Origin: Escherichia coli
Lineage (GTDB): Bacteria; Pseudomonadota; Gammaproteobacteria; Enterobacterales; Enterobacteriaceae
Length of the DNA: 64,000 nucleotides
NCBI RefSeq assembly: GCF_036507355.1
Contig: NZ_AP027877.1
Direction: 5' to 3' (one strand)
In this document: positions 39,800 through 51,926 of the stretch, piece by piece
Layout of the letters: each line of letters starts with the position of its first letter
How positions within the stretch are numbered: the first letter of the stretch is position 1
Made by a program: the position numbers and the translations under genes
The notes under the pieces: model-generated
The model's database searches: none
Seen by the model: only the letters and a program-made list of their open reading frames with translations
What the model was told of the DNA's origin: nothing

Positions 39800-40640
39800 T
39801 TGCAGAGCAAGATTACGAAAGCCCGCCCCCGCAAGGACTGACGCGAGGTAGTCTCTGTCCGCAGCTGCTTTTCACATCTTACATCTTGCCCCTGCCATGA
39901 GTATCTTATCTTTCGTTAAAATATTAATAGCGATCTTCCGTATCCCTGAAAATAATTCTGCTGCATTTCCTCTTCTTATTTTGAAGTCATCTTTATTCAT
40001 TACCACGTCCAGATGCCAGTGCAATTTATTCTCCACTTGCCAGTGATTTCGGTTCGCTGTGGCGAACTTCTCTGCGGTTAAATCAGCAGAAATGCTATAA
40101 TATCTGACCGTCATTTCGGGATTTTTCTTTTGTTCTGCTATTATTGAGCGAAATGAGACTGCCATGCATAATTTCTTCAGCCCTTTCCATTCAAACGTAA
40201 AATCAATAAATTCATCAGAGACATGCAAACAATATGAAGACGGATTTTAATGACATAAATTGCTCCCTTGTGACGACTCTTGTCATAAGAGTGCCGGAGC
40301 GTTTTTCCATCAATTGCGATGATGTCTTTATCATCTGAAGAATGACAGTCACGCATCCAGTTAATAAAGCACTCGTAAAATTTTGCAGGACTGATACAGG
40401 ATACAACTCTGGCAATGATATCGTGAACAGGAATACCATTTTCAAAATCACCATATCACTTCAAAAAATCGAGATGTGTTTCCCCAAATCCTCTATATCT
40501 TCCCAGCCTTATGCACCAGAAATAACGGCGCAAATAGTTAACAGATAGAATATCTGGCAATTTATGTTCCACTTTCCAGGCTTGCCTGTAATCGGGGATA
40601 ATAGAAATATGTTCCATCAATTTTTTAAGTTCCATTTTAC
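39800..40640 (-). pseudogene. H-repeat (ISAs1-family) transposase, disrupted by internal deletion and frameshifts
   Basis: N-terminus [26 protein letters not shown].. near 40640, mid part ..[11 protein letters not shown].., C-terminal part 39872..40228 (..[45 protein letters not shown]..). Confidence 0.7.
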
Positions 40641-40892: not shown

Positions 40893-42953
40893 TTAACCTC
40901 GGCTCACCGTTTTCGATTCCATCCAATAAATGACCCGGTTGGATGTGGGCTGATCGCCAACAACTTTGCCATCTGCAGAGATTAGCTTCAGCTCTTTATT
41001 AGCCTCATCACCGAAGTAAATCATACGGTAGCGAAAATAACCGCCCCAGGGTTCACGTCCACCCAGCGGACTTTGCATAAACCAGGCGCGGGAGTCGTGA
41101 ACCTGGTCATCATAGAGGGCCAGTAATTCAGCGCATGGCTGAGTACGCGTTCCCGTTCCCAGTGAATCAATAAAAAATTGTGGATAGAGTCCGTCTCCCA
41201 TAGCCTTAATTTGCTGATATTCTTTTGCTTCATCATCGCCATTAATCAGATACACCGGATATTTAGGAATGACATCCACAAGAATCTGAATGGCTTTCTC
41301 CATGACGCTGCCGTTAATATCGCGCGTCCATCCTTTATAATCGCTCTGAAATTCTCGGGCTGCCTCTCGCAACTGATACTGAGCATTGGTTGGGTCAAGG
41401 ATAGGAATGCCCTGATTACTTTCATCAAGTGTGCCATTCCCTTTCTGCTTGTTCGCCCGCTCTTTTTCAATATTTTCCATTTGTTCTTTACGCGCTTTAG
41501 CCTCTTTATCAAGTCCATCTTTATCCAGCTGTGGCGCCTTAATATAAAAAGGTTGCACAAGAAGGCTGTTATTCGCATAGCGACCGATACGCCAGGCGGT
41601 GATCCAGCCGATCTGATCGCTAATTGCGCTTTCAAGAACCTGGGCAAGTTGATAGGAGTGATAACCTTCCCTCGTATCAATCATTTCTTCTGTACCCTGC
41701 AAGGTGGTGTTCAGCAGCGTTTGTCGCCAGATGTTGAAGCGTTTTGTTAATGAATTAGCAATCGTAAATTCCTTTACACTAGAAGGACTCATAATTCGCA
41801 GAGGCGACACACCTTTTATTAATGGAGTAACAAATTTAGAATAAACAGCAAGTGGTGCTCCTGAATCAAATGCAGCAAGATACATATCATGCAGTGCTAT
41901 CTGAGAAAGAATTTCGCCTGAGTCACCACAGGACTTCCCCTGATCGCGAACGGGATAGCCACCACCGACATCAGAGTGCATCCCCGGATAGATAATTTCC
42001 TCTGCATTTAAAGGATAATTTCCGTCTGGACGACGGATTGAATCCAGCGGAAAGCACAGCCGCTGCTCATGCGCGGCAACGAAGTGGCGGCAGCATTTAA
42101 TCAGGCCGGGAAACTGCCTCTCATCAGGGAGTTGCTGAGTACTATCGGCCCATCCCATATGACCGGCAGCGCCCGGTAAAACATGCGCCGCCCCCACAGA
42201 AGCTACGGTATCCAGCAGCCCCAAAAACTCAATACTGACAGCTAACCCGGCCAGCATCACCTGTTGCTCCTGCGGGCAAGCTAACTGAGTCAACCAGTTA
42301 ACAAAAGTTCGTGCTTCCGCTGCGCCACGGGAAAATCCGTAGATAAACAGCTTTACGTTTAGCAGGCGCGGACTGGCTTGCTCTAACAGTCCCTGTAATT
42401 TTTCCAGGTAGGGGTTAATCACATTGCGACGATTCACTTCACCAGTCATAGGCCAGGGAGCGCGCATAAGAGGAATGTGCTCTTTTGCCACATTATCATC
42501 CAGTCGCTTATGGGAAGGGTCAATGGAATAGCTCAGGGCATCCACGAGGCGTAATAATGCCCAATTAATTCGATCTTCACCACCAGTAGCGAACTCCAGC
42601 CCGCTGTTGCTGTAATCCATTTCACCTATCTTGGGAAATGGTGTGCCTACACCCGGTATATAGTAGTTAAAATATCCCTGTTCTTCTGCGTTCTGATAGG
42701 TCGTATGAAACAGTTTGGCAATATTGGTTGGGTGTCCAGGAGTGTCATTATATTCATTATTATTTGTACCATCAAAAAACAGACTAATATGCAGACTTTG
42801 ATTACACGTAAAGCCAATTCTAAATCCAGCCTGTTTACTACAGTTGGTTTTGTGCTCTTCTGTTTTATTGATTTGTTTTAGGTAGTTCGCGTTTACCTGC
42901 GCTTCAGATAATATTAATCGCCCATCTTCAGGGAACACCGGGGGGCATAACAC
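40893..42953 (-). CDS. Tle1-family phospholipase effector, DUF2235 alpha/beta hydrolase (686 aa)
   Basis: DUF2235 hallmarks: N-terminal ..HISLFFDGTNNN.. and GxSxG nucleophile elbow IYGFSRGAAEARTF; sits downstream of a vgrG stub and a DUF4123-like gene. Confidence 0.75.
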   Translation of the reverse strand: MLCPPVFPEDGRLILSEAQVNANYLKQINKTEEHKTNCSKQAGFRIGFTCNQSLHISLFFDGTNNNEYNDTPGHPTNIAKLFHTTYQNAEEQGYFNYYIPGVGTPFPKIGEMDYSNSGLEFATGGEDRINWALLRLVDALSYSIDPSHKRLDDNVAKEHIPLMRAPWPMTGEVNRRNVINPYLEKLQGLLEQASPRLLNVKLFIYGFSRGAAEARTFVNWLTQLACPQEQQVMLAGLAVSIEFLGLLDTVASVGAAHVLPGAAGHMGWADSTQQLPDERQFPGLIKCCRHFVAAHEQRLCFPLDSIRRPDGNYPLNAEEIIYPGMHSDVGGGYPVRDQGKSCGDSGEILSQIALHDMYLAAFDSGAPLAVYSKFVTPLIKGVSPLRIMSPSSVKEFTIANSLTKRFNIWRQTLLNTTLQGTEEMIDTREGYHSYQLAQVLESAISDQIGWITAWRIGRYANNSLLVQPFYIKAPQLDKDGLDKEAKARKEQMENIEKERANKQKGNGTLDESNQGIPILDPTNAQYQLREAAREFQSDYKGWTRDINGSVMEKAIQILVDVIPKYPVYLINGDDEAKEYQQIKAMGDGLYPQFFIDSLGTGTRTQPCAELLALYDDQVHDSRAWFMQSPLGGREPWGGYFRYRMIYFGDEANKELKLISADGKVVGDQPTSNRVIYWMESKTVSRG

Positions 42954-43298
42954 GGAAAAGCCAGACCACTTATTTTGCTGGACATGTTGCTGGTTCTTTT
43001 ACTTTGAGAGATTTTAATTGATGGGTATTGTTTCTACGACAATAAAGTTTTGACAAAGAAGCAAATAAAATGCATATCTTTCGATTGTCACACATTGGAA
43101 TATCGACAGAGCATTGATGATATTACGCAAAATATATTGCAGCCAAGTGAACTGACATTACGATCGAACACAAATGCAACATGATGGATACTACCATTAC
43201 ATGTCGAGCTTGATTTTCCGTTTATTTCACGATTATCTCTTGATATTAACAGCTACGGACTTTTAAACAGATAAATCTCCCCGTACATCACCACAATA

Positions 43299-44069
43299 TT
43301 ATCCTTCGAAGTCCCGCAAAGCTCCGAAATATTTCGCGTCATTGGCTCTGAAAGCAATATCAAGACAGTGGGCAAAATAGCTTTCCTGACTGAGTTCACT
43401 GACTGCTTTCTCCTTCATCAGGACTTCAGCGTCGCAGATACAGCCCATCAATCCCACCTGTACATCATCCACCCGATTCATCTCCGGGTTGTCAGTAAGC
43501 CTGCGTTCTGGTGAAAAACTTCCTGATTTCCAGTTAATCTCACCATCACGGTCTAACCAGCTCCAGAACAACGCAATATCAGTAAATGTCGCCTGCTGCT
43601 CGTTAGTCAAAACATGTGTGAACAGTAAAGGGAACACCCGATTATCATAGTAACGCAGCAATCCGGTCTGTTCTTCCCACTGAACCTGTGACAATACCTG
43701 AAGATGCCGCCCCAGCAGGTCGAATGTAAGAGGGGATATCAACAAAGTAAGACGCGGCGTATCAGCAAATGACGCCATCAGTTGTGCCAGAAATTTGCGA
43801 TGGCTACTGAGCGCAAAGTACAGGCGTAACACTACAGGGGAATACTCCATCGTCTCAGCTTCAGGCGTTCCTTCAAACAGGGCATACCAGTGAATGGCTG
43901 GCGACAGATGAAGCATATCATTTTGCAAAGGTTGGTCGGTTCCAGCCTGGTCAACAAGCACATCTATGTAATCCAAACCAGCGGCAGAACAGAATGATTC
44001 AGCTTGCTTCAGCCAGATAATATATTTGTCTTGATCGGTAGCGTGTGGCGATACTGTTATCATTGTCAT
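43299..44069 (-). CDS. DUF4123-like T6SS effector adaptor/chaperone (256 aa)
   Basis: Size and position (between vgrG 3' end and effector) typical of DUF4123 adaptors; assignment from context and general sequence character. Confidence 0.5.
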   Translation of the reverse strand: MTMITVSPHATDQDKYIIWLKQAESFCSAAGLDYIDVLVDQAGTDQPLQNDMLHLSPAIHWYALFEGTPEAETMEYSPVVLRLYFALSSHRKFLAQLMASFADTPRLTLLISPLTFDLLGRHLQVLSQVQWEEQTGLLRYYDNRVFPLLFTHVLTNEQQATFTDIALFWSWLDRDGEINWKSGSFSPERRLTDNPEMNRVDDVQVGLMGCICDAEVLMKEKAVSELSQESYFAHCLDIAFRANDAKYFGALRDFEG

Positions 44070-44075
44070 TCTCCC

Positions 44076-44447
44076 TTATCCACGAGGCGCAAAAACGGCG
44101 GCGGCTTCTTGCGCCCTTTTCAGGCACTCCTTACACACCGATTTTTCTGGCGCTTCCTCACCCTCATCGTTGTTATCATTCTGATCGGACGATGCATTAC
44201 TATCATTTTGCTCAGCCGCTAAACTTTTATCATCTGCCAGCGCTTTCAGAACCGCCGGTTGCAGCGTCGGCACCGGCGTTCCCGGACTACCGCCGCTATT
44301 GAGATTGATTTTCGGCCCGACGATGTCCACGCTCCCTGAATGGATGACCACAAACGAGCCGCCCACCTTCAGGCTTATCCGGCTGCTGCTCTCCAGCACC
44401 ACATCGCCCTCCACCTTTAACCACGCCACCGCAGTCAATGGCATCAC
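44076..44447 (-). pseudogene. vgrG: vgrG 3'-terminal stub (123 aa)
   Basis: ..KVEGDVVLESSSRISLKVGGSFVVIHSGSVDIVGPKINLNSGGSPGTPVPTLQPAVL.. aligns to the C-terminus of the vgrG at 47531..49237; shared DNA segment 44366..44402 = 47916..47952. Confidence 0.75.
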
Positions 44448-44652
44448 CGGTTCTGGCGGTAGGTTTATCGTCGATAAAGGCGAAAGAGGTGTTTCCGGCT
44501 CTTAAGAAATATTTACGCACATGCACCAGCATTACAGAAAATAAAACCTGCGATACATTTTAATCAATAAGGTTGCTTTACCAAGCTTCCATCGATATTG
44601 ATGGAAAATTCATTAGACCTAATATGAACAGAATGTTGCTCATCATCTTTAT

Positions 44653-45339
44653 CTAATATTTGATTAACAAAAAAAACGTATTTTTATCAAATTCATAATT
44701 ATCACATCCCTCTCCACTAAATGATATAGCTCTAAAATCATATTCATTACATGAGTATCTTTTCATCAAAATAGAGAGGAATGTTTCATTAATTGATTTT
44801 AATACAAACCATTTTCTCCTAACAAGTTTGTAGTTTAATGTTTTTATATGATAATTATTTAAACTGGGGAGAAATGAATGCATATCATTCAATTTTACAT
44901 CAAAATATATTTTTTTACCTGCCGTAATTTCCACCCATCGGCTCAAATTCAAATCAAGCTCAAAGGGACAAAAGCCTCCTAGATAGTCTAAGCTAATATT
45001 TCCTGATGTAATCAAGAATTCGTCATCACACAAAGCATCAAATACATCTCCATTTCCTTTTTGGAAGTTCTTTGGATAATATATTCTGGGGAGAAAATAC
45101 GATTTAGTACTACTGTTATAAAAAGTTATAGTGGCTAAAATATTTTCAGCATGTGGCTTAACCACCAATTTAACAACAACATCATTTGTTAATTCATTAC
45201 TTATATTTTCCTCTGGCGCTAAATTATGGCTAAGATAAATAATTGGTTTCCCATTGTCACTTCTTCGTTCAAAACCGAATCTGTATTTTTTTACAAAAAG
45301 ATTCTCATTATCTATTGCAATTGCAATAGATAATGGCAA
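44653..45339 (-). CDS. AT-rich hypothetical protein, candidate immunity partner of the upstream HExxH protein; start uncertain
   Basis: ORF 44653..45339 begins at TTG; an ATG with signal-like peptide MKRLAFYNLNYVVLMVFFFVFC lies upstream in another frame across T-homopolymer runs. Confidence 0.35.
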   Translation of the reverse strand: MPLSIAIAIDNENLFVKKYRFGFERRSDNGKPIIYLSHNLAPEENISNELTNDVVVKLVVKPHAENILATITFYNSSTKSYFLPRIYYPKNFQKGNGDVFDALCDDEFLITSGNISLDYLGGFCPFELDLNLSRWVEITAGKKIYFDVKLNDMHSFLPSLNNYHIKTLNYKLVRRKWFVLKSINETFLSILMKRYSCNEYDFRAISFSGEGCDNYEFDKNTFFLLIKY

Positions 45340-45512
45340 AAAACAAAGAAAAAAACCATCAGTACAACATAATTTAGATTATAGAAAGCCAACCTCTTCA
45401 TCTTATTTCCCCGTCAACTCATCAAAACATTTTTCTATCTCTTTTATTTTATCCTCTACTTTTTTTGCTAACATATTCTCATCTTGAGCTTCAATATCTT
45501 CATTATTTAATT

Positions 45513-46205
45513 TTATATAAAATATCTTTCAACATTATATGCATTCTCAAATAACTGATCTTTACGCAATGTAACCAGATCATTAGCCACTGAAACATGT
45601 TTCTCATAGCTAACTTCATCCTTATTACTTGTTGCGAACTTATTAATACCCGTATAATCCTGAGTCCACATACCACCTTTTTGATTGTCACCCCAATACC
45701 AAAATATATGGGACATTTCATGGCAAAGTGTACTTACATGAGAGTCTCTACCTGTAACCGACTGTTTTATACCATGTCTGTATTCAAAATGCGCTCCGAT
45801 ATTTACAATGTAAGGAGGATCAAGATGTGGACTAATAAAAGCAGCAAATTCATTGCAGTTCGTATAATCTTTATAGCTTTCGATCGTCAAACCATTTGCA
45901 ATCGTCATTATTCGTCTGATGCCATCCATTATGAATAGTCTCGCTTGCATTCGTTTCCCAGTATCTTCCCCAACCTTTCTGATTTTTATAATGTCCTCGC
46001 CTTTAAGGCCAAAAACTTTAATAAAATCTCGTTGTTGCTCCCCCTCCCATGACATAATATCATCTGCTCTTTTCAATAAAACCATTTTCTGTGCTTTACA
46101 AGCCTTACTCATCATTATTTTAAATTTATTTGTAATTTTTTGCGGTACTACACATACTTGCGACTCGGGTTGTGAAGTCCCACTAGTATTATTATTCCCT
46201 GCCAT
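45513..46205 (-). CDS. HExxH zinc-metallopeptidase-like protein, candidate T6SS effector (230 aa)
   Basis: ATG at 46205 preceded by GGAGGGG; motif HEMSH followed by ..WTQDYTG.. (aspzincin-like spacing); N-terminal 16 codons of track ORF 45513..46334 come from the IS600-like terminus. Confidence 0.5.
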   Translation of the reverse strand: MAGNNNTSGTSQPESQVCVVPQKITNKFKIMMSKACKAQKMVLLKRADDIMSWEGEQQRDFIKVFGLKGEDIIKIRKVGEDTGKRMQARLFIMDGIRRIMTIANGLTIESYKDYTNCNEFAAFISPHLDPPYIVNIGAHFEYRHGIKQSVTGRDSHVSTLCHEMSHIFWYWGDNQKGGMWTQDYTGINKFATSNKDEVSYEKHVSVANDLVTLRKDQLFENAYNVERYFI

Positions 46206-46349
46206 AATGCCCCTCCGGCTCAATATAAAAAGCATCCGAAAATAACAATTGGACTTTAATTTCCTGTGCTGTATCTGTATAAAAGTGAGGTAGCCTGAGT
46301 TTAACGGACACTCCTTCCTGAAATAGAATGGCATCAGAAGGAGCTAATA

Positions 46350-46652
46350 ATGAGCAGAAAAACCCAACGTTACTCTAAAGAGTTCAAAGCCGAAGCTGTC
46401 AGAACGGTTCTTGAAAATCAACTTTCGATCAGTGAAGGCGCTTCCCGATTATCTCTTCCTGAAGGCACTTTAGGACAATGGGTTACCGCCGCCAGAAAAG
46501 GGCTCGGTACTCCTGGTTCCCGCACGGTGGCTGAACTGGAATCTGAAATTCTGCAACTGCGTAAGGCGTTAAATGAAGCTCGCCTTGAGCGAGATATATT
46601 AAAAAAAGCAACAGCGTATTTTGCACAGGAGTCGCTGAAAAATACGCGTTAA
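46350..46652 (+). CDS. IS3-family transposase OrfA (IS600-like)
   Basis: MSRKTQRYSKEFKAEAVRTVLENQLSISEGASRLSLPEGTLGQWV..; HTH plus leucine zipper. Confidence 0.85.
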   Translation: MSRKTQRYSKEFKAEAVRTVLENQLSISEGASRLSLPEGTLGQWVTAARKGLGTPGSRTVAELESEILQLRKALNEARLERDILKKATAYFAQESLKNTR

Positions 46653-46687
46653 TCGAACAATGGCGACAACAATTTCCCATTGAAGCG

Positions 46688-47506
46688 ATGTGTCAGGTAT
46701 TTGGTGTATCCAGGAGCGGTTATTACAACTGGGTACAGCATGAACCCTCAGACAGAAAACAAAGTGATGAGCGGCTAAAACTGGAGATTAAGGTGGCACA
46801 TATCCGCACTCGCGAAACATATGGAACCCGGCGGCTCCAGACGGAGCTGGCAGAGAATGGCATCATCGTTGGTCGTGACCGACTGGCACGTCTTCGTAAG
46901 GAGCTAAGGCTACGCTGTAAGCAGAAACGCAAGTTCAGAGCGACTACGAACTCGAACCACAATCTGCCAGTTGCGCCAAATCTGCTGAACCAGACGTTCG
47001 CTCCTACAGCACCAAATCAGGTCTGGGTGGCGGACCTGACGTATGTTGCCACACAGGAGGGATGGTTGTACCTCGCTGGCATCAAAGATGTTTATACGTG
47101 CGAAATTGTCGGCTACGCCATGGGAGAGCGCATGACAAAAGAGCTGACAGGTAAAGCCCTGTTTATGGCGCTCAGGAGCCAGCGCCCACCTGCCGGGCTA
47201 ATCCACCACTCTGATCGAGGTTCACAGTACTGCGCATACGATTACCGGGTCATACAGGAGCAGTTTGGTCTGAAAACATCAATGTCGCGTAAAGGTAACT
47301 GTTACGACAACGCTCCGATGGAAAGCTTCTGGGGAACGCTGAAAAATGAGAGCCTGAGCCACTATCGTTTTAATAACCGGGATGAAGCCATCTCAGTAAT
47401 ACGGGAATACATTGAGATTTTCTACAATCGTCAGCGTCGTCACTCTCGTCTGGGGAATATCTCCCCGGCAGCCTTCAGGGAAAAATATCATCAGATGGCT
47501 GCTTAA
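46688..47506 (+). CDS. IS3-family transposase OrfB, DDE integrase domain (IS600-like)
   Basis: ..WVADLTYVATQEGWLYLAGIKDVYTCEIVGYAM..HHSDRGSQYCAYDY.. Confidence 0.85.
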   Translation: MCQVFGVSRSGYYNWVQHEPSDRKQSDERLKLEIKVAHIRTRETYGTRRLQTELAENGIIVGRDRLARLRKELRLRCKQKRKFRATTNSNHNLPVAPNLLNQTFAPTAPNQVWVADLTYVATQEGWLYLAGIKDVYTCEIVGYAMGERMTKELTGKALFMALRSQRPPAGLIHHSDRGSQYCAYDYRVIQEQFGLKTSMSRKGNCYDNAPMESFWGTLKNESLSHYRFNNRDEAISVIREYIEIFYNRQRRHSRLGNISPAAFREKYHQMAA

Positions 47507-47530
47507 AAAAAGAATAAATGGTAGTGTCCG

Positions 47531-49237
47531 CTATTGCCAGTACACCTCAAATATTTCTGTATATCCCTCTCTGTCTGTTTCACCACGCGTCTGTGTGCCA
47601 TCCTCAAAAAAGGCAATATACTGCGTCTCTGAATACGGTATCCCGTCATCGTCCGTAAAATGGAACTGGAGGGTATATTTTTCAGGATCATCTTCATCGT
47701 CACCGCCATCACCTCCTCCGTCACTCCCTGCGGGATTGCCACTATCCTCTCCGGAGTCATCACTGCCATCATCACTGCTCTCATCCTCCGGAGCCTCCAG
47801 CACCGCCGGCTGCATCGTCCCCACCGGTGTCCCCGCACTGCCCCCACCGTTCAGGTTTATCTTCGGCCCGGCAATATCCACTCCGCCCGGCTGAATGACG
47901 ATAAACGAGCCACCCACCTTCAGGCTTATCCGGCTGCTGCTCTCCAGCACGATATCCCCGTCCACTTTTATCCCCAGCGCGCCACTCACCTTCTCCGCCA
48001 GGTCCCCCTTCACCACCAGGCTGTGTTTCCCCTCCACCAGACTGATATGGTTCCCCGTCGTCTTATGCTCCTGCTTCCCTTCCACCGTCACTTTACGGTC
48101 GTTTCTGACGTACAGACCGTCATCGTGACTCACGCTCACCGTCCGGTCATTCGTCACCTTCAGAGTCTGGTCATTACGTACCGTGATACGCCGGTCGTTC
48201 GCCACCGTGATACTCTGGTCGTGGCCCCCCTCTTTTTTTGTACCGACCTGAACCGTCTGACCCTTCACCACCGTTATCTTCTGGTCGTTACCGATGGTTT
48301 CCGTATGGTCATGTTTTACATCCGTTGTCCGGTCGTTGAGCACCTCCGTATCCATGTTCTTCTGCGCATGGATATACACCTGCTCATTACTGGTGGCGTC
48401 TTCAAACCGCAGCTCGTTAAATCCGCTTCCTTTATAGGTTTTTGACCGTATCGTCATCTGCGTCTTCGTTCCCGGCAGGTCGCCCGGGGAGCGGTTGTCC
48501 TCATGGTACGTCCGCCCCATGATTATCGGCTGGTCCGGGTCTCCGTTCAGAAAATCAACAATCACCTCCTGGCCCACCCGCGGTATCGCCAGATTACCGA
48601 ACCCCGGCCCCGCCCACGCCTGCGATACCCGCACCCAGCATGAACTCGCCTCCGTCATCCCGTGATAACGGTCCCAGTGGAACTTCACCCGTACCCGGCC
48701 ATGTTCATCGCAGAAGATTTCCTCTCCCGCAGGCCCGGTGACAATGGCACTCTGCGGCCCGTCCACCTTCGGTTTGCTTTGCAGCCGTGGACGCCACGTC
48801 CGGTCCGCCGGTATCACCTCTAACTGATTTCCCAGCGTGGTTCCTCTCCCTTGGCTGCCGTGCAGCGCCTGCGGCTGGCTTCCTGACAGTATGCTCTGTA
48901 CCACCTGCCATTCACGGTTCAGCATCTTCTGCGGATGCCCCGTCAGCGTAAACCGCGTTCCCGGCCACAGCCTCGGCGAATTACTCTGCCCTGTGGCCTT
49001 TTCCGCATCACTGCGCAGGCTCTCCATCTGGTACAGCGTGAAATCCTTGCCGTGCTGCTCATCCTTGAACCTTCCCGGATAATCAAATATTTCATACTGC
49101 GCCAGCTGTCCGTTCAGGTTCTCACCCTGCTGCTCATACATCCCCGGCCAGTCCGGCACCTTAAACGTGTAATCCTGGCTCTGCACCGACGACGGGCGGA
49201 CATGCGCCTCATACGCTACCGCCCGGGTTTCCGGCAT
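47531..49237 (-). pseudogene. vgrG: vgrG lacking ~270 N-terminal residues; 3' end runs into the IS600-like element
   Basis: Starts within the gp27-like region (..VRPSSVQSQDYTFKVPDWPG..), contains gp5 OB-fold segment (..VDGPQSAIVTGPAGEEIFCDEHGRVRVKFHWDR..) and Asp/Glu/Gly-rich C-terminal extension; last 6 codons are IS sequence. Confidence 0.8.
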
Positions 49238-49338: not shown

Positions 49339-49857
49339 TTATGCTTCCAGCGGTGCACGCCAGTCATCGGCACCAGAAGTACCGGATTTGATGTGCTCCC
49401 ACTCAACCTTACGGTATGCCAGTGATACTGCGAGCAATTGCGTAAACTCACGCTGTGCAGGGTCCTGGCAGTGCGGCATGTGCAGGTTCATGTCCACAAT
49501 CGTCGCGTCAGTAAGACGTGTGGTGAAGTAGTGCTCCTGCTTGCCTTCAACTGAAGTACGCCACCAGTGCAGCTCCACTTTCGGCAGCATTTCACCGGAG
49601 GCCAGCGCGTTGTACAGCAGCGGAACGGCTTTGTTCAGCGCCACGGTGAAAATGAACGGTTTGTGCGCGCGCTGCCCGGAAGGTTGACCAGACTGTGGAT
49701 CGGTTGGAACAGTAACGTTATGCAGAAACTCCTGCACCAGCATTTCATCTTCGTGTCCCTGCACGTAGATATTGCCGACAGAATCTGCGGTGAAAGCACC
49801 GGCAGTGATGTTCCCCTGGGTCTGACCTGTAATTGAAATGTAACATGGGGTTGGCAT
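49339..49857 (-). CDS. hcp: T6SS tube protein Hcp (172 aa)
   Basis: MPTPCYISITGQTQGNITAGAFTADSVGNIYVQGHEDEMLV..HKPFIFTVALNKAVPLLYNAL.. Confidence 0.9.
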   Translation of the reverse strand: MPTPCYISITGQTQGNITAGAFTADSVGNIYVQGHEDEMLVQEFLHNVTVPTDPQSGQPSGQRAHKPFIFTVALNKAVPLLYNALASGEMLPKVELHWWRTSVEGKQEHYFTTRLTDATIVDMNLHMPHCQDPAQREFTQLLAVSLAYRKVEWEHIKSGTSGADDWRAPLEA

Positions 49858-50559: not shown

Positions 50560-50715
50560 ATGAGCAAAATGAACAACAATGGCGGCAGTGTCGCGCCGAA
50601 AGAAAGAATCAGCGTTCGGTATACACCAAAAGTTGATGGGGTGGCTGCTGATATCGAATTGCCGCTGAATTTATTGATCACCGGCAATCTGAAAGGGAAA
50701 CCAGATAACACGCCG
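50560..50715 (+). pseudogene. tssB: tssB (sheath small subunit) 5' stub, ~52 codons, cut by IS3-family element
   Basis: MSKMNNNGGSVAPKERISVRYTPKVDGVAADIELPLNLLITGNLKGKPDNTP then IS terminus; TssB N-terminal pattern; too short for the ORF track. Confidence 0.55.
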
Positions 50716-50772
50716 TGAATCGCCACGGGTTTAACAGACACCTCAGAGTCATTTAAGATGGCTTAAAGAGAG

Positions 50773-51057
50773 GTGCCCATGAGCGGTAAGCGTTATCCCG
50801 AAGAGTTTAAAATTGAAGCAGTCAAACAGGTTGTTGATCGCGGTTATTCTGTTGCCAGCGTTGCAACACGTCTCGATATCACCACCCACAGCCTTTACGC
50901 CTGGATAAAGAAGTACGGTCCGGATTCTTCCGCTAATAAAGAACAGTCAGATGCTCAGGCCGAGATCCGCCGTCTCCAGAAAGAGCTGAAGCGGGTTACC
51001 GACGAACGGGACATATTAAAAAAAGCCGCGGCGTACTTCGCAAAGCTGTCCGACTGA
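50773..51057 (+). CDS. IS3-family transposase OrfA
   Basis: MPMSGKRYPEEFKIEAVKQVVDRGYSVASVATRLDITTHSLYAWIKKY.. Confidence 0.85.
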   Translation: MPMSGKRYPEEFKIEAVKQVVDRGYSVASVATRLDITTHSLYAWIKKYGPDSSANKEQSDAQAEIRRLQKELKRVTDERDILKKAAAYFAKLSD

Positions 51058-51113
51058 GGTACGCCTTTATCCGTGACAACACCTGTTGCTGGCCTGTTCG
51101 CCTGCTCTGTCGG

Positions 51114-51926
51114 GTGCTGGATGTTCATCCCAGTGGTTTTTACGCCTGGCTTCAGCAGCCGCATTCACAACGCCATCAGGCAGACCTGAGGCTGACAGGG
51201 CAGATTAAACAGTTCTGGCTGGAATCGGGATGCGTCTATGGTTATCGCAAAATCCATCTGGATCTGCGGGACAGCGGGCAACAGTGCGGAGTGAACAGAG
51301 TCTGGCGACTGATGAAACGTGTCGGGATAAAGGCTCAGGTCGGATACCGGAGCCCGCGGGCACGTAAAGGCGAGGCCAGTATCGTGTCGCCCAACAGGCT
51401 CCAGCGACAGTTCAATCCGGATGCTCCGGATAAGCGTTGGGTAACGGACATAACCTACATCAGGACCCACGAAGGCTGGCTGTATCTTGCCGTGGTTGTT
51501 GATCTGTTCTCACGCAAAATTATCGGCTGGTCCATGCAATCCCGGATGACAAAGGACATTGTCCTGAACGCACTGCTGATGGCTGTATGGCGCCGTAATC
51601 CCCAAAAACAGGTGCTGGTTCATTCGGATCAGGGCAGTCAGTACACAAGCCATGAGTGGCAGTCGTTCCTGAAATCACACGGCCTGGATGGCAGCATGAG
51701 CCGTCGCGGTAACTGCCATGATAATGCGGTTGCAGAAAGCTTTTTCCAGTTGTTGAAACGCGAACGGATAAAGAAAAAGATCTACGGAACGCGGGAAGAA
51801 GCCCGCAGCGATATTTTTGATTACATCGAAATGTTTTATAACAGTAAGCGTCGGCATGGTTCCAGCGATCAGATGTCACCGACAGAATATGAAAACCAGT
51901 ATTATCAACGGCTCGGAAGTGTCTAG
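51114..51926 (+). CDS. IS3-family transposase OrfB (DDE integrase domain)
   Basis: ..WVTDITYIRTHEGWLYLAVVVDLFSRKIIGWSM..VHSDQGSQYTSHEW.. Confidence 0.85.
   Translation: MLDVHPSGFYAWLQQPHSQRHQADLRLTGQIKQFWLESGCVYGYRKIHLDLRDSGQQCGVNRVWRLMKRVGIKAQVGYRSPRARKGEASIVSPNRLQRQFNPDAPDKRWVTDITYIRTHEGWLYLAVVVDLFSRKIIGWSMQSRMTKDIVLNALLMAVWRRNPQKQVLVHSDQGSQYTSHEWQSFLKSHGLDGSMSRRGNCHDNAVAESFFQLLKRERIKKKIYGTREEARSDIFDYIEMFYNSKRRHGSSDQMSPTEYENQYYQRLGSV

Follow-up and report, generated by a model that had tools for sequence, protein, structure and literature searches.

What are two AT-rich open reading frames (ORFs) beside an interrupted vgrG gene of Escherichia coli, and can the proteins they encode still act as a weapon? 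The ORFs lie in a 64,000-nucleotide stretch of contig NZ_AP027877.1 (RefSeq assembly GCF_036507355.1), which we call the window, and an earlier note on this DNA proposed that they are an uncharacterized type VI secretion system (T6SS) effector-immunity pair, with an HExxH metallopeptidase-like protein as the toxin. We find that the locus most probably represents a VgrG-linked T6SS cargo cassette in degraded form, composed of an M35-like peptidase effector and its immunity protein. Homology, synteny, motif conservation, fold, and the decay of the window copy come from this analysis, and for periplasmic toxicity, neutralization by the partner, and binding to a C-terminal piece of VgrG we draw on the literature on a homologue only. 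The two genes occupy the following positions.

45513..46205, minus strand: M35-like (aspzincin-fold) peptidase effector gene, shortened form, 230 codons plus stop
45403..45512, minus strand: remnant of the ancestral peptidase C-terminal tail, residues 231-267 (...KLNDEDIEAQ...DELTGK), with its stop TAA at 45405..45403
44564..45401, minus strand: immunity gene at its ancestral extent (279 aa in intact alleles), ATG at 45401, TGA at 44566..44564
45339..44653, minus strand: the 228-codon ORF reported earlier, with a TTG start, a middle piece of the interrupted immunity gene

The peptidase frame had been described as a 230-aa ORF with a strong Shine-Dalgarno (SD) sequence, an HEMSH motif followed by WTQDYTG, and no signal peptide, and all of this is borne out. 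The ORF runs from 46205 to 45513 on the minus strand behind the SD GGAGGGG (46216..46210, 4 nt before the ATG), the product has a hydrophilic N-terminus that begins MAGNNNTSG and lacks a signal peptide, and HEMSH falls at residues 162-166, followed by GGMWTQDYTG, with D183 as the candidate third zinc ligand. Across the peptidase and partner ORFs the GC content is 29-37%, against 54-62% in the adjacent vgrG. Both ORFs are thus real, but the boundaries they were given are frameshift artefacts and not gene boundaries. Copies of the locus DNA that are >99% identical occur in 12 of 5426 complete E. coli genomes, and the frameshifts were called by base-by-base alignment of the window to two near-identical copies (L001 and L002). 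One base is missing near 45523, so that the window peptidase has 230 aa where intact copies have 267 (WP_047624962.1, which RefSeq names ‘peptidase M35 / M35 family metalloendopeptidase’), and the tail remnant downstream is now out of frame. This C-terminal tail is an extra of the subfamily, present in a minority of homologues, most of which end right after ERYFEI; the shortened product therefore retains the entire catalytic domain, up to NAYNVERYF, together with every invariant residue.

The partner gene has suffered twice. One T is missing from a T run near 45356, which puts the true start (ATG 45401) out of frame with the body of the gene, and a poly-T run near 44677 is in its shorter state here, which yields 249 aa in place of 279 and loses a C-terminal tail that is conserved in the family. 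The region cut off at the start (45401..~45315) encodes a Sec-type signal peptide, MKRLAFYNLNYVVLMVFFLCFLPLSIAIA, followed by IDNEN. The suggestion that the AT-rich partner has the size and position of an immunity gene therefore stands as far as its low GC content and placement go, since a homologue of it lies immediately downstream of the peptidase at all loci with enough flank, but the 228-aa ORF on which it was based is a piece of a 279-aa gene with a signal peptide. The 230-aa and 228-aa products match exactly the E. coli proteins BED23692.1 (‘peptidase M35’) and BED23691.1 in NCBI. E. coli A30 (NZ_CP028745) is one strain with the locus intact, its two alleles being WP_047624962.1 and WP_105458168.1. 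In intact loci, the partner is a ‘hypothetical protein’ of 249 or 279 aa that begins 2 nt after the peptidase stop, and the peptidase start overlaps the vgrG stop by 14 nt, an overlap from which we propose that the two genes are translationally coupled. The T run near 44677 exists in two states, with 279-aa and 249-aa products (~96 and ~120 contigs), and a paralogous immunity gene is frameshifted at the equivalent position (L004 versus L005, near the 3' end). The two states could reflect slippage-prone phase variation, two stable alleles, or a recurrent assembly error.

The family to which the peptidase belongs is small, with 9 clusters among 5.8 billion proteins and 49 representatives, many of them fragmentary, among 1.84 billion proteins (E<=0.001). 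Among 100,044 species-representative genomes we find 10 loci, all in Enterobacterales, and the genera with the family are Citrobacter, Buttiauxella, Phytobacter, Rahnella, Escherichia, Superficieibacter, and Chimaeribacter. An alignment of 26 sequences spanning identities down to 26% has A122, I136, F140, G152, S155, C161, H162, E163, H166, D183, Y223, N224, E226, Y228, and F229 invariant, and a consensus of TGxDSxVSTLCHExSH - x(~16) - GGMGTxD - ... - VFxNAYNIERYFEI, in which the window has GGMWTQD for GGMGTxD. Wherever a homologous locus comes with enough flank, a vgrG 3' end, the peptidase, and a partner homologue follow one another in that order, often with PAAR after them. This holds across the 12 near-identical E. 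coli loci, a 57%-identical paralogue, two loci of E. coli PAR, Buttiauxella, and metagenomic homologues; among the 10 species-representative loci, 9 show this order, and tblastn adds L009, L011, and L013. The conditions under which the earlier note would have given up its reading, namely housekeeping homologues unlinked to vgrG or hcp, or an HExxH motif that is not conserved, are contradicted on both counts, and the linkage supports its view of a secreted toxin in a vgrG island over a housekeeping peptidase.

The linkage extends into VgrG itself. Beside the cassette, VgrG residues ~727-790 stay ~50-68% identical, and the rest of VgrG falls to ~23-25% (L020, L021). Conservation of this segment despite drift elsewhere argues for exchange of the VgrG tip together with the effector as a single unit, and from such comparisons the cassette appears to travel with a ~60-residue VgrG C-terminal module. 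At one metagenome-derived or draft locus (L009 2419..3430), the first pair is followed by pieces of a further peptidase gene and a further partner gene, and then by another vgrG, an arrangement that looks like decaying tandem cassettes.

What kind of peptidase is this? Its AlphaFold model has a mean predicted local distance difference test score (pLDDT) of 89.6, with residues 1-25 disordered and the catalytic domain beginning at ~26. A Foldseek search of the model against all 350,542 chains of the PDB gave GfMEP as the sole match, the model has the aspzincin catalytic-domain fold, and the solved structures closest to it include AsaP1. A profile of the motif region also reached GfMEP among PDB sequences (E 0.0022). 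The guess that the protein is an aspzincin is thus well supported, and on its predicted structure we regard the peptidase as a divergent aspzincin of the M35 fold. In M35 enzymes the motif GTxDxxYG supplies an Asp as the third zinc ligand (PMC12924839); GfMEP reads HESSH...GTKDYAYG and AsaP1 reads H(E)LSH...GTDDLGYG...NNADNHEYFA, and the C-terminal NAxNxE(x)YF helix is kept in the window family. The lysine specificity of GfMEP at P1' is set by E157 (PMC11985622), and in a by-eye alignment the invariant E226 would stand opposite this residue. From this retained Glu, it may be that the toxin cuts before lysine residues of an envelope protein.

Set beside the M35 aspzincins with known structures (GfMEP/Lys-N 1G12, AsaP1 2X3A, and deuterolysin 1EB6), the window peptidase differs in several ways. 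It has neither the signal peptide nor the N-terminal inhibitory pro-peptide in cis that would mark a zymogen, and its proposed route is T6SS delivery instead of general secretion. The loop between its HExxH and its Asp has 8 more residues than theirs, the signature lacks its ‘xxYG’ half, and, by eye, an invariant Tyr (Y223) stands at what we take to be the position of GfMEP D154. Sequence likeness to these enzymes is below Pfam significance.

The partner family is as coherent as that of the peptidase. Partners at all loci examined are mutually homologous (E 1e-10 to 1e-74), all have a hydrophobic signal-like N-terminal segment, and C125, C145, W156, and W198 are invariant. The partner has no Pfam match, its profile found only 10 unannotated relatives among 5.8 billion proteins and no fusion to a peptidase, and against PDB sequences it gave chance-level matches only (AcrIIC1 and a fatty-acid-binding protein). 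Some ~130 complete E. coli genomes match the partner gene only, of a paralogous cassette at the yncG-yddH site (e.g., Nissle 1917, NZ_CM189243.1 1317415..1318045). To judge by sequence matches, such partner-only copies resemble typical orphan immunity genes.

A homologous pair has been studied in E. coli PAR, and this, together with the RefSeq name, means that the family was neither unrecognized nor uncharacterized as first supposed. The peptidase AKO63_2955 (‘M35^PAR’) is toxic to E. coli when directed to the periplasm from pET22b (PMC10673891, Commun Biol 2023), the downstream gene AKO63_2956 neutralizes it (PMC10673891), and M35^PAR co-precipitates with VgrG only via a ‘DUF2345’ piece, AKO63_2954 (PMC10673891). 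We located AKO63_2955 at NZ_CP012379.1:2972630 by blastn with a 24-nt forward primer from that study; megablast with its 44-nt overlap primer gave no match. M35^PAR (WP_001556810.1) shares 28% identity with the window peptidase (E 7e-29), and AKO63_2956 (WP_001556809.1) is 31% identical to the window partner, C-terminal tail included (E 2e-30). The PAR pair shares the two-gene family, the synteny, all catalytic invariants, and a homologous partner with the tail. The window subfamily differs from it in having shorter loops, an extra C-terminal helical tail, and frameshifts, and the window cassette sits in a T6SS-1/Tle1 island and not in the PAR locus. The stand-alone DUF2345 gene of PAR, taken as evidence for a separate adaptor (PMC10673891), is part of a single RefSeq vgrG pseudogene with a frameshift and an internal stop:

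L006 2491..5008 (NZ_CP012379.1 2970120..2972637): frameshifted vgrG pseudogene of E. coli PAR

Directly upstream of the tested cassette, E. coli PAR has a second one, made up of vgrG, an M35-like gene (246 aa, 31% identical to the window protein), and a partner (203 aa) (L006 1..2007). The two form a tandem array of diversified cassettes.

A paralogue of the window peptidase (WP_000342575.1, P0006) is 57% identical over its full length, with a partner 41% identical to that of the window, and is encoded at another chromosomal site, between yncG and yddH, in the order PAAR, vgrG, peptidase, partner. It is far commoner, occurring in ~508-640 of the 5426 E. coli genomes against 12 for the window cassette. 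An E. coli ‘M35-peptidase’ has been found toxic only when targeted to the periplasm (PMC7904677); this protein likely belongs to the window family and is possibly the yncG-yddH paralogue itself.

Taken with the published results on the PAR pair, these observations suggest how an intact cassette would work. The effector would correspond to the catalytic domain of a zinc metallopeptidase that is a divergent M35/aspzincin. Lacking both signal peptide and pro-domain, it would be synthesized in the cytoplasm and loaded onto the VgrG spike through the C-terminal VgrG module with which the cassette travels. We infer that the T6SS would then fire it into the periplasm of neighboring Gram-negative cells, where it would cleave a protein of the envelope or periplasm. 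The partner, a beta-sandwich protein in which two cysteines are invariant, would be exported by Sec to the periplasm and protect sister cells by binding the peptidase, and inhibition would most likely come from occlusion of the active-site cleft, much as the AsaP1 pro-domain does.

This last step raises the question of where such an inhibitor may have come from. The partner model is of moderate confidence (pLDDT 67), and in this predicted structure the core fold best matches protease-inhibitory domains, those of AsaP1 (2x3a) and of B. subtilis BsuPI (3ISY). The mature M35 enzymes (1g12 and 1eb6) are absent among the structure matches of the partner model, and the HExxH of 2x3a lies near residue 293, as compared to 117 in mature GfMEP, so that the partner must have matched the N-terminal pro-region of AsaP1. 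For its part, the peptidase model aligned to 170 residues of the same 293-residue AsaP1 chain, and thus each of the two gene products maps onto one half of an M35 zymogen. The pro-peptides of M35 enzymes are known to be inhibitory (PMC11985622). It is conceivable, if somewhat short of an even chance on these models, that the immunity family is a free-standing exported homologue of the M35 pro-domain, and that the pair is an aspzincin zymogen taken apart, with the antidote plugging the cleft in trans. The pro-peptide of AsaP1 reportedly puts a lysine in the S1' pocket. In contrast to that pro-domain, which is encoded upstream as an N-terminal domain, the inhibitor here is a separate exported protein encoded downstream. 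The gene order, with the catalytic domain first, is the reverse of the domain order of a zymogen and counts against the pro-domain origin. No sequence similarity was detected between the partner and the AsaP1 pro-domain or BsuPI, and a search with a 49-aa AsaP1 fragment for full zymogen sequences gave no candidates.

The surroundings of the window copy bear on whether it could still work. The earlier note placed a vgrG upstream of the pair, parted from it by an IS600-like insertion. IS600 is indeed present, but it is inserted inside the vgrG 3' end, and the vgrG ORF has also lost ~646 nt of its 5' end. The island is laid out as follows.

40893..42953, minus strand: tle1-like phospholipase effector gene, 686-aa ORF open
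43299..44069, minus strand: tla1, DUF4123 chaperone/adaptor for Tle1, part of the neighboring Tle1 module and not of the M35 pair
44076..44447, minus strand: orphan vgrG C-terminal fragment, apparently the displaced 3' end of the Tle1-carrying vgrG
46192..46284, minus strand: last ~30 codons of vgrG, cut off by IS600; 14 nt are shared with the peptidase start, and the peptidase SD lies within this piece
46285..47548, plus strand: IS600, complete, 1264 bp, with orfA at 46350..46652 and orfB at 46688..47506, 99.9% identical to annotated IS600 copies
47549..49213, minus strand: vgrG remnant, ~codons 216-770 of a 799-codon gene (noted earlier as an ORF at 47531..49237)
49339..49857, minus strand: hcp, Hcp family T6SS tube/effector protein
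50560..50718, plus strand: tssB 5' remnant, 52 codons, cut by an IS3-family element (50773..51926)

In near-identical intact loci, the RefSeq order is hcp, vgrG (799 aa), peptidase, partner, a vgrG 3' fragment, tla1, tli1a, and tle1, and this block adjoins tssBCEFG. In the window, IS600 sits at ~codon 770 of the 799 codons of vgrG, 80 nt ahead of the peptidase ATG, and has duplicated 3 bp of its target. On the 5' side of vgrG, ~740 nt are deleted, comprising 646 nt of vgrG and part of the hcp-vgrG spacer. No T6SS core genes follow the tssB remnant within the 64-kb window. The window thus has neither intact genes nor an intact delivery apparatus, given the frameshifts, the vgrG 5' deletion, IS600, and the cut tssB, and the cassette in this E. 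coli genome is very probably a non-functional, decayed relic.

From 51.9 to 64 kb, CP4-like prophage-remnant genes (a GTPase family gene, DUF4942, and DUF932) and dnaQ stand in place of the T6SS core cluster. The orphan vgrG 3' fragment just upstream of tla1-tle1 is a pseudogene in ‘intact’ E. coli loci too (L001/L002 8577..8921), which suggests that an M35 cassette of vgrG tip, peptidase, and immunity gene recombined into the Tle1-carrying vgrG and displaced its original 3' end. The immunity gene tli1a (DUF3304), which lies between tle1 and tla1 in relatives (cf. L002 6958..7470), is deleted here with a junction at 42969..42996, apparently between short direct repeats, and tle1 in the window is a toxin gene without its antidote at a locus with a broken delivery machine. 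Downstream of tle1, fragmented ISAs1-family transposase ORFs (39872..40635, minus strand) correspond to a RefSeq pseudogene in related strains.

Several points weigh against our account of the locus, the first group of them against the assignment of the peptidase. Single-sequence and whole-family profile searches of PDB sequences gave weak M35 matches, with E for GfMEP of up to 1.1. The Pfam match to PF14521 (Aspzincin_M35) is likewise weak (independent E-value 0.0016, 19.3 bits) and covers residues 98-168, ending before the Asp motif; PF02102 was unreported in the Pfam search, and NCBIfam has no model matching the peptidase and none for the partner. The searches against zincin families that the earlier note had called for were successful for the fold (GfMEP) and the motif-region profile, and sub-threshold for Pfam Aspzincin_M35. 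The spacing described there as aspzincin-like is not so: D183 lies 16 residues past the second His, twice the canonical 8 of GfMEP and AsaP1, and it is a presumptive third ligand, proposed from sequence. Of the signature GTxDxxYG, the GTxD Asp is invariant in the family and the ‘xxYG’ half absent. The second group concerns function. The experimental evidence comes from a relative that is only 28% identical to the window protein, and we did not find T6SS-dependent secretion of any family member in the literature. As the 230-aa peptidase has all invariant residues, the window copy may still be active, and a working T6SS could exist elsewhere in the genome.

This raises the alternative that the pair is still a working weapon, in which an active 230-aa peptidase is delivered by another VgrG and T6SS, and immunity comes from the 228-aa ORF with its TTG start or from a product of frame slippage. 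All invariant catalytic residues are present up to F229, the lost tail is dispensable for the fold since most homologues end after ERYFEI, homopolymer frameshifts may revert or be sequencing errors, and the 249-aa form of the immunity protein is found as often as the 279-aa form. We nonetheless consider this unlikely, as the cognate vgrG has no 5' end, IS600 interrupts the C-terminal module that links it to the effector, tssB is cut with no core T6SS genes after it in the window, the neighboring tli1 is deleted, and the partner ORF, having lost its signal peptide, would have no way into the periplasm, the compartment in which tested relatives act. It is still harder to credit that the peptidase is a virulence protease directed at eukaryotes, as is the secreted M35 toxin AsaP1 of Aeromonas, and has no antibacterial role. 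The closest solved structures do include AsaP1, a fish-cell toxin (PMC12924839), and some T6SS effectors cross kingdoms (VgrG2b, PMC6899460). A conserved partner with a signal peptide beside every copy, the existence of orphan partner genes, and the toxicity of a homologue to E. coli from the periplasm, neutralized by its partner (PMC10673891), are interbacterial hallmarks, although an extra eukaryotic target would be compatible with them.

The comparison with VgrG2b leads to a question of family, as AKO63_2955 has been equated with the ‘M35’ toxin domain of PA0262 (PMC10673891), from which the peptidase would belong to the VgrG2b C-terminal effector family. Both are VgrG-linked HExxH enzymes with the periplasm as their site of action and immunity proteins in that compartment, and Wood et al. 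mention stand-alone cargo versions in Enterobacteriaceae (PMC6899460). The likeness between the P. aeruginosa VgrG2b C-terminal metallopeptidase with PA0261 and our pair extends to a spike-associated HExxH periplasmic toxin and a periplasmic immunity protein, in which, for PA0261, disulfides are functionally important (PMC6899460). The VgrG2b toxin domain is, however, a DUF4157 thermolysin-like gluzincin with Glu as the third ligand (Wood et al., PMC6899460), fused to VgrG instead of carried as cargo. The peptidase has no Pfam match to DUF4157, and VgrG2b was retrieved neither by sequence nor by fold search of the PDB. With no sequence or fold link, we treat the two as analogous and not as one family, and give the shared-family reading very little credence. 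The reading to which we give least is that the downstream protein is a loading adaptor or chaperone and not an immunity protein. T6SS cargo effectors often have adjacent accessory genes, such as the neighboring tla1 with its DUF4123, but a Sec-type signal peptide takes the partner out of the cytoplasm, where loading occurs, the partner homologue neutralizes toxicity (PMC10673891), and the predicted core fold best matches protease-inhibitory domains.

We therefore return to a degraded VgrG-linked effector-immunity cassette as the account of this locus. Part of it was already known, since the protein bears the name ‘peptidase M35’ in RefSeq and experiments exist for a homologous pair; the window pair is in itself an ordinary member of a thinly characterized family. 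This work adds the placement of the family as an aspzincin of the M35 fold, rather than the VgrG2b-type gluzincin with which it was equated before, its confinement to Enterobacterales, and a cassette with a ~60-residue VgrG C-terminal module. A P1'-Lys specificity, if the family has it, would narrow the search for the envelope target. If the immunity protein is pro-domain-like, this would provide a concrete and testable mechanism of inhibition, and the family would offer an example of a toxin-antitoxin pair built from both halves of a protease zymogen.

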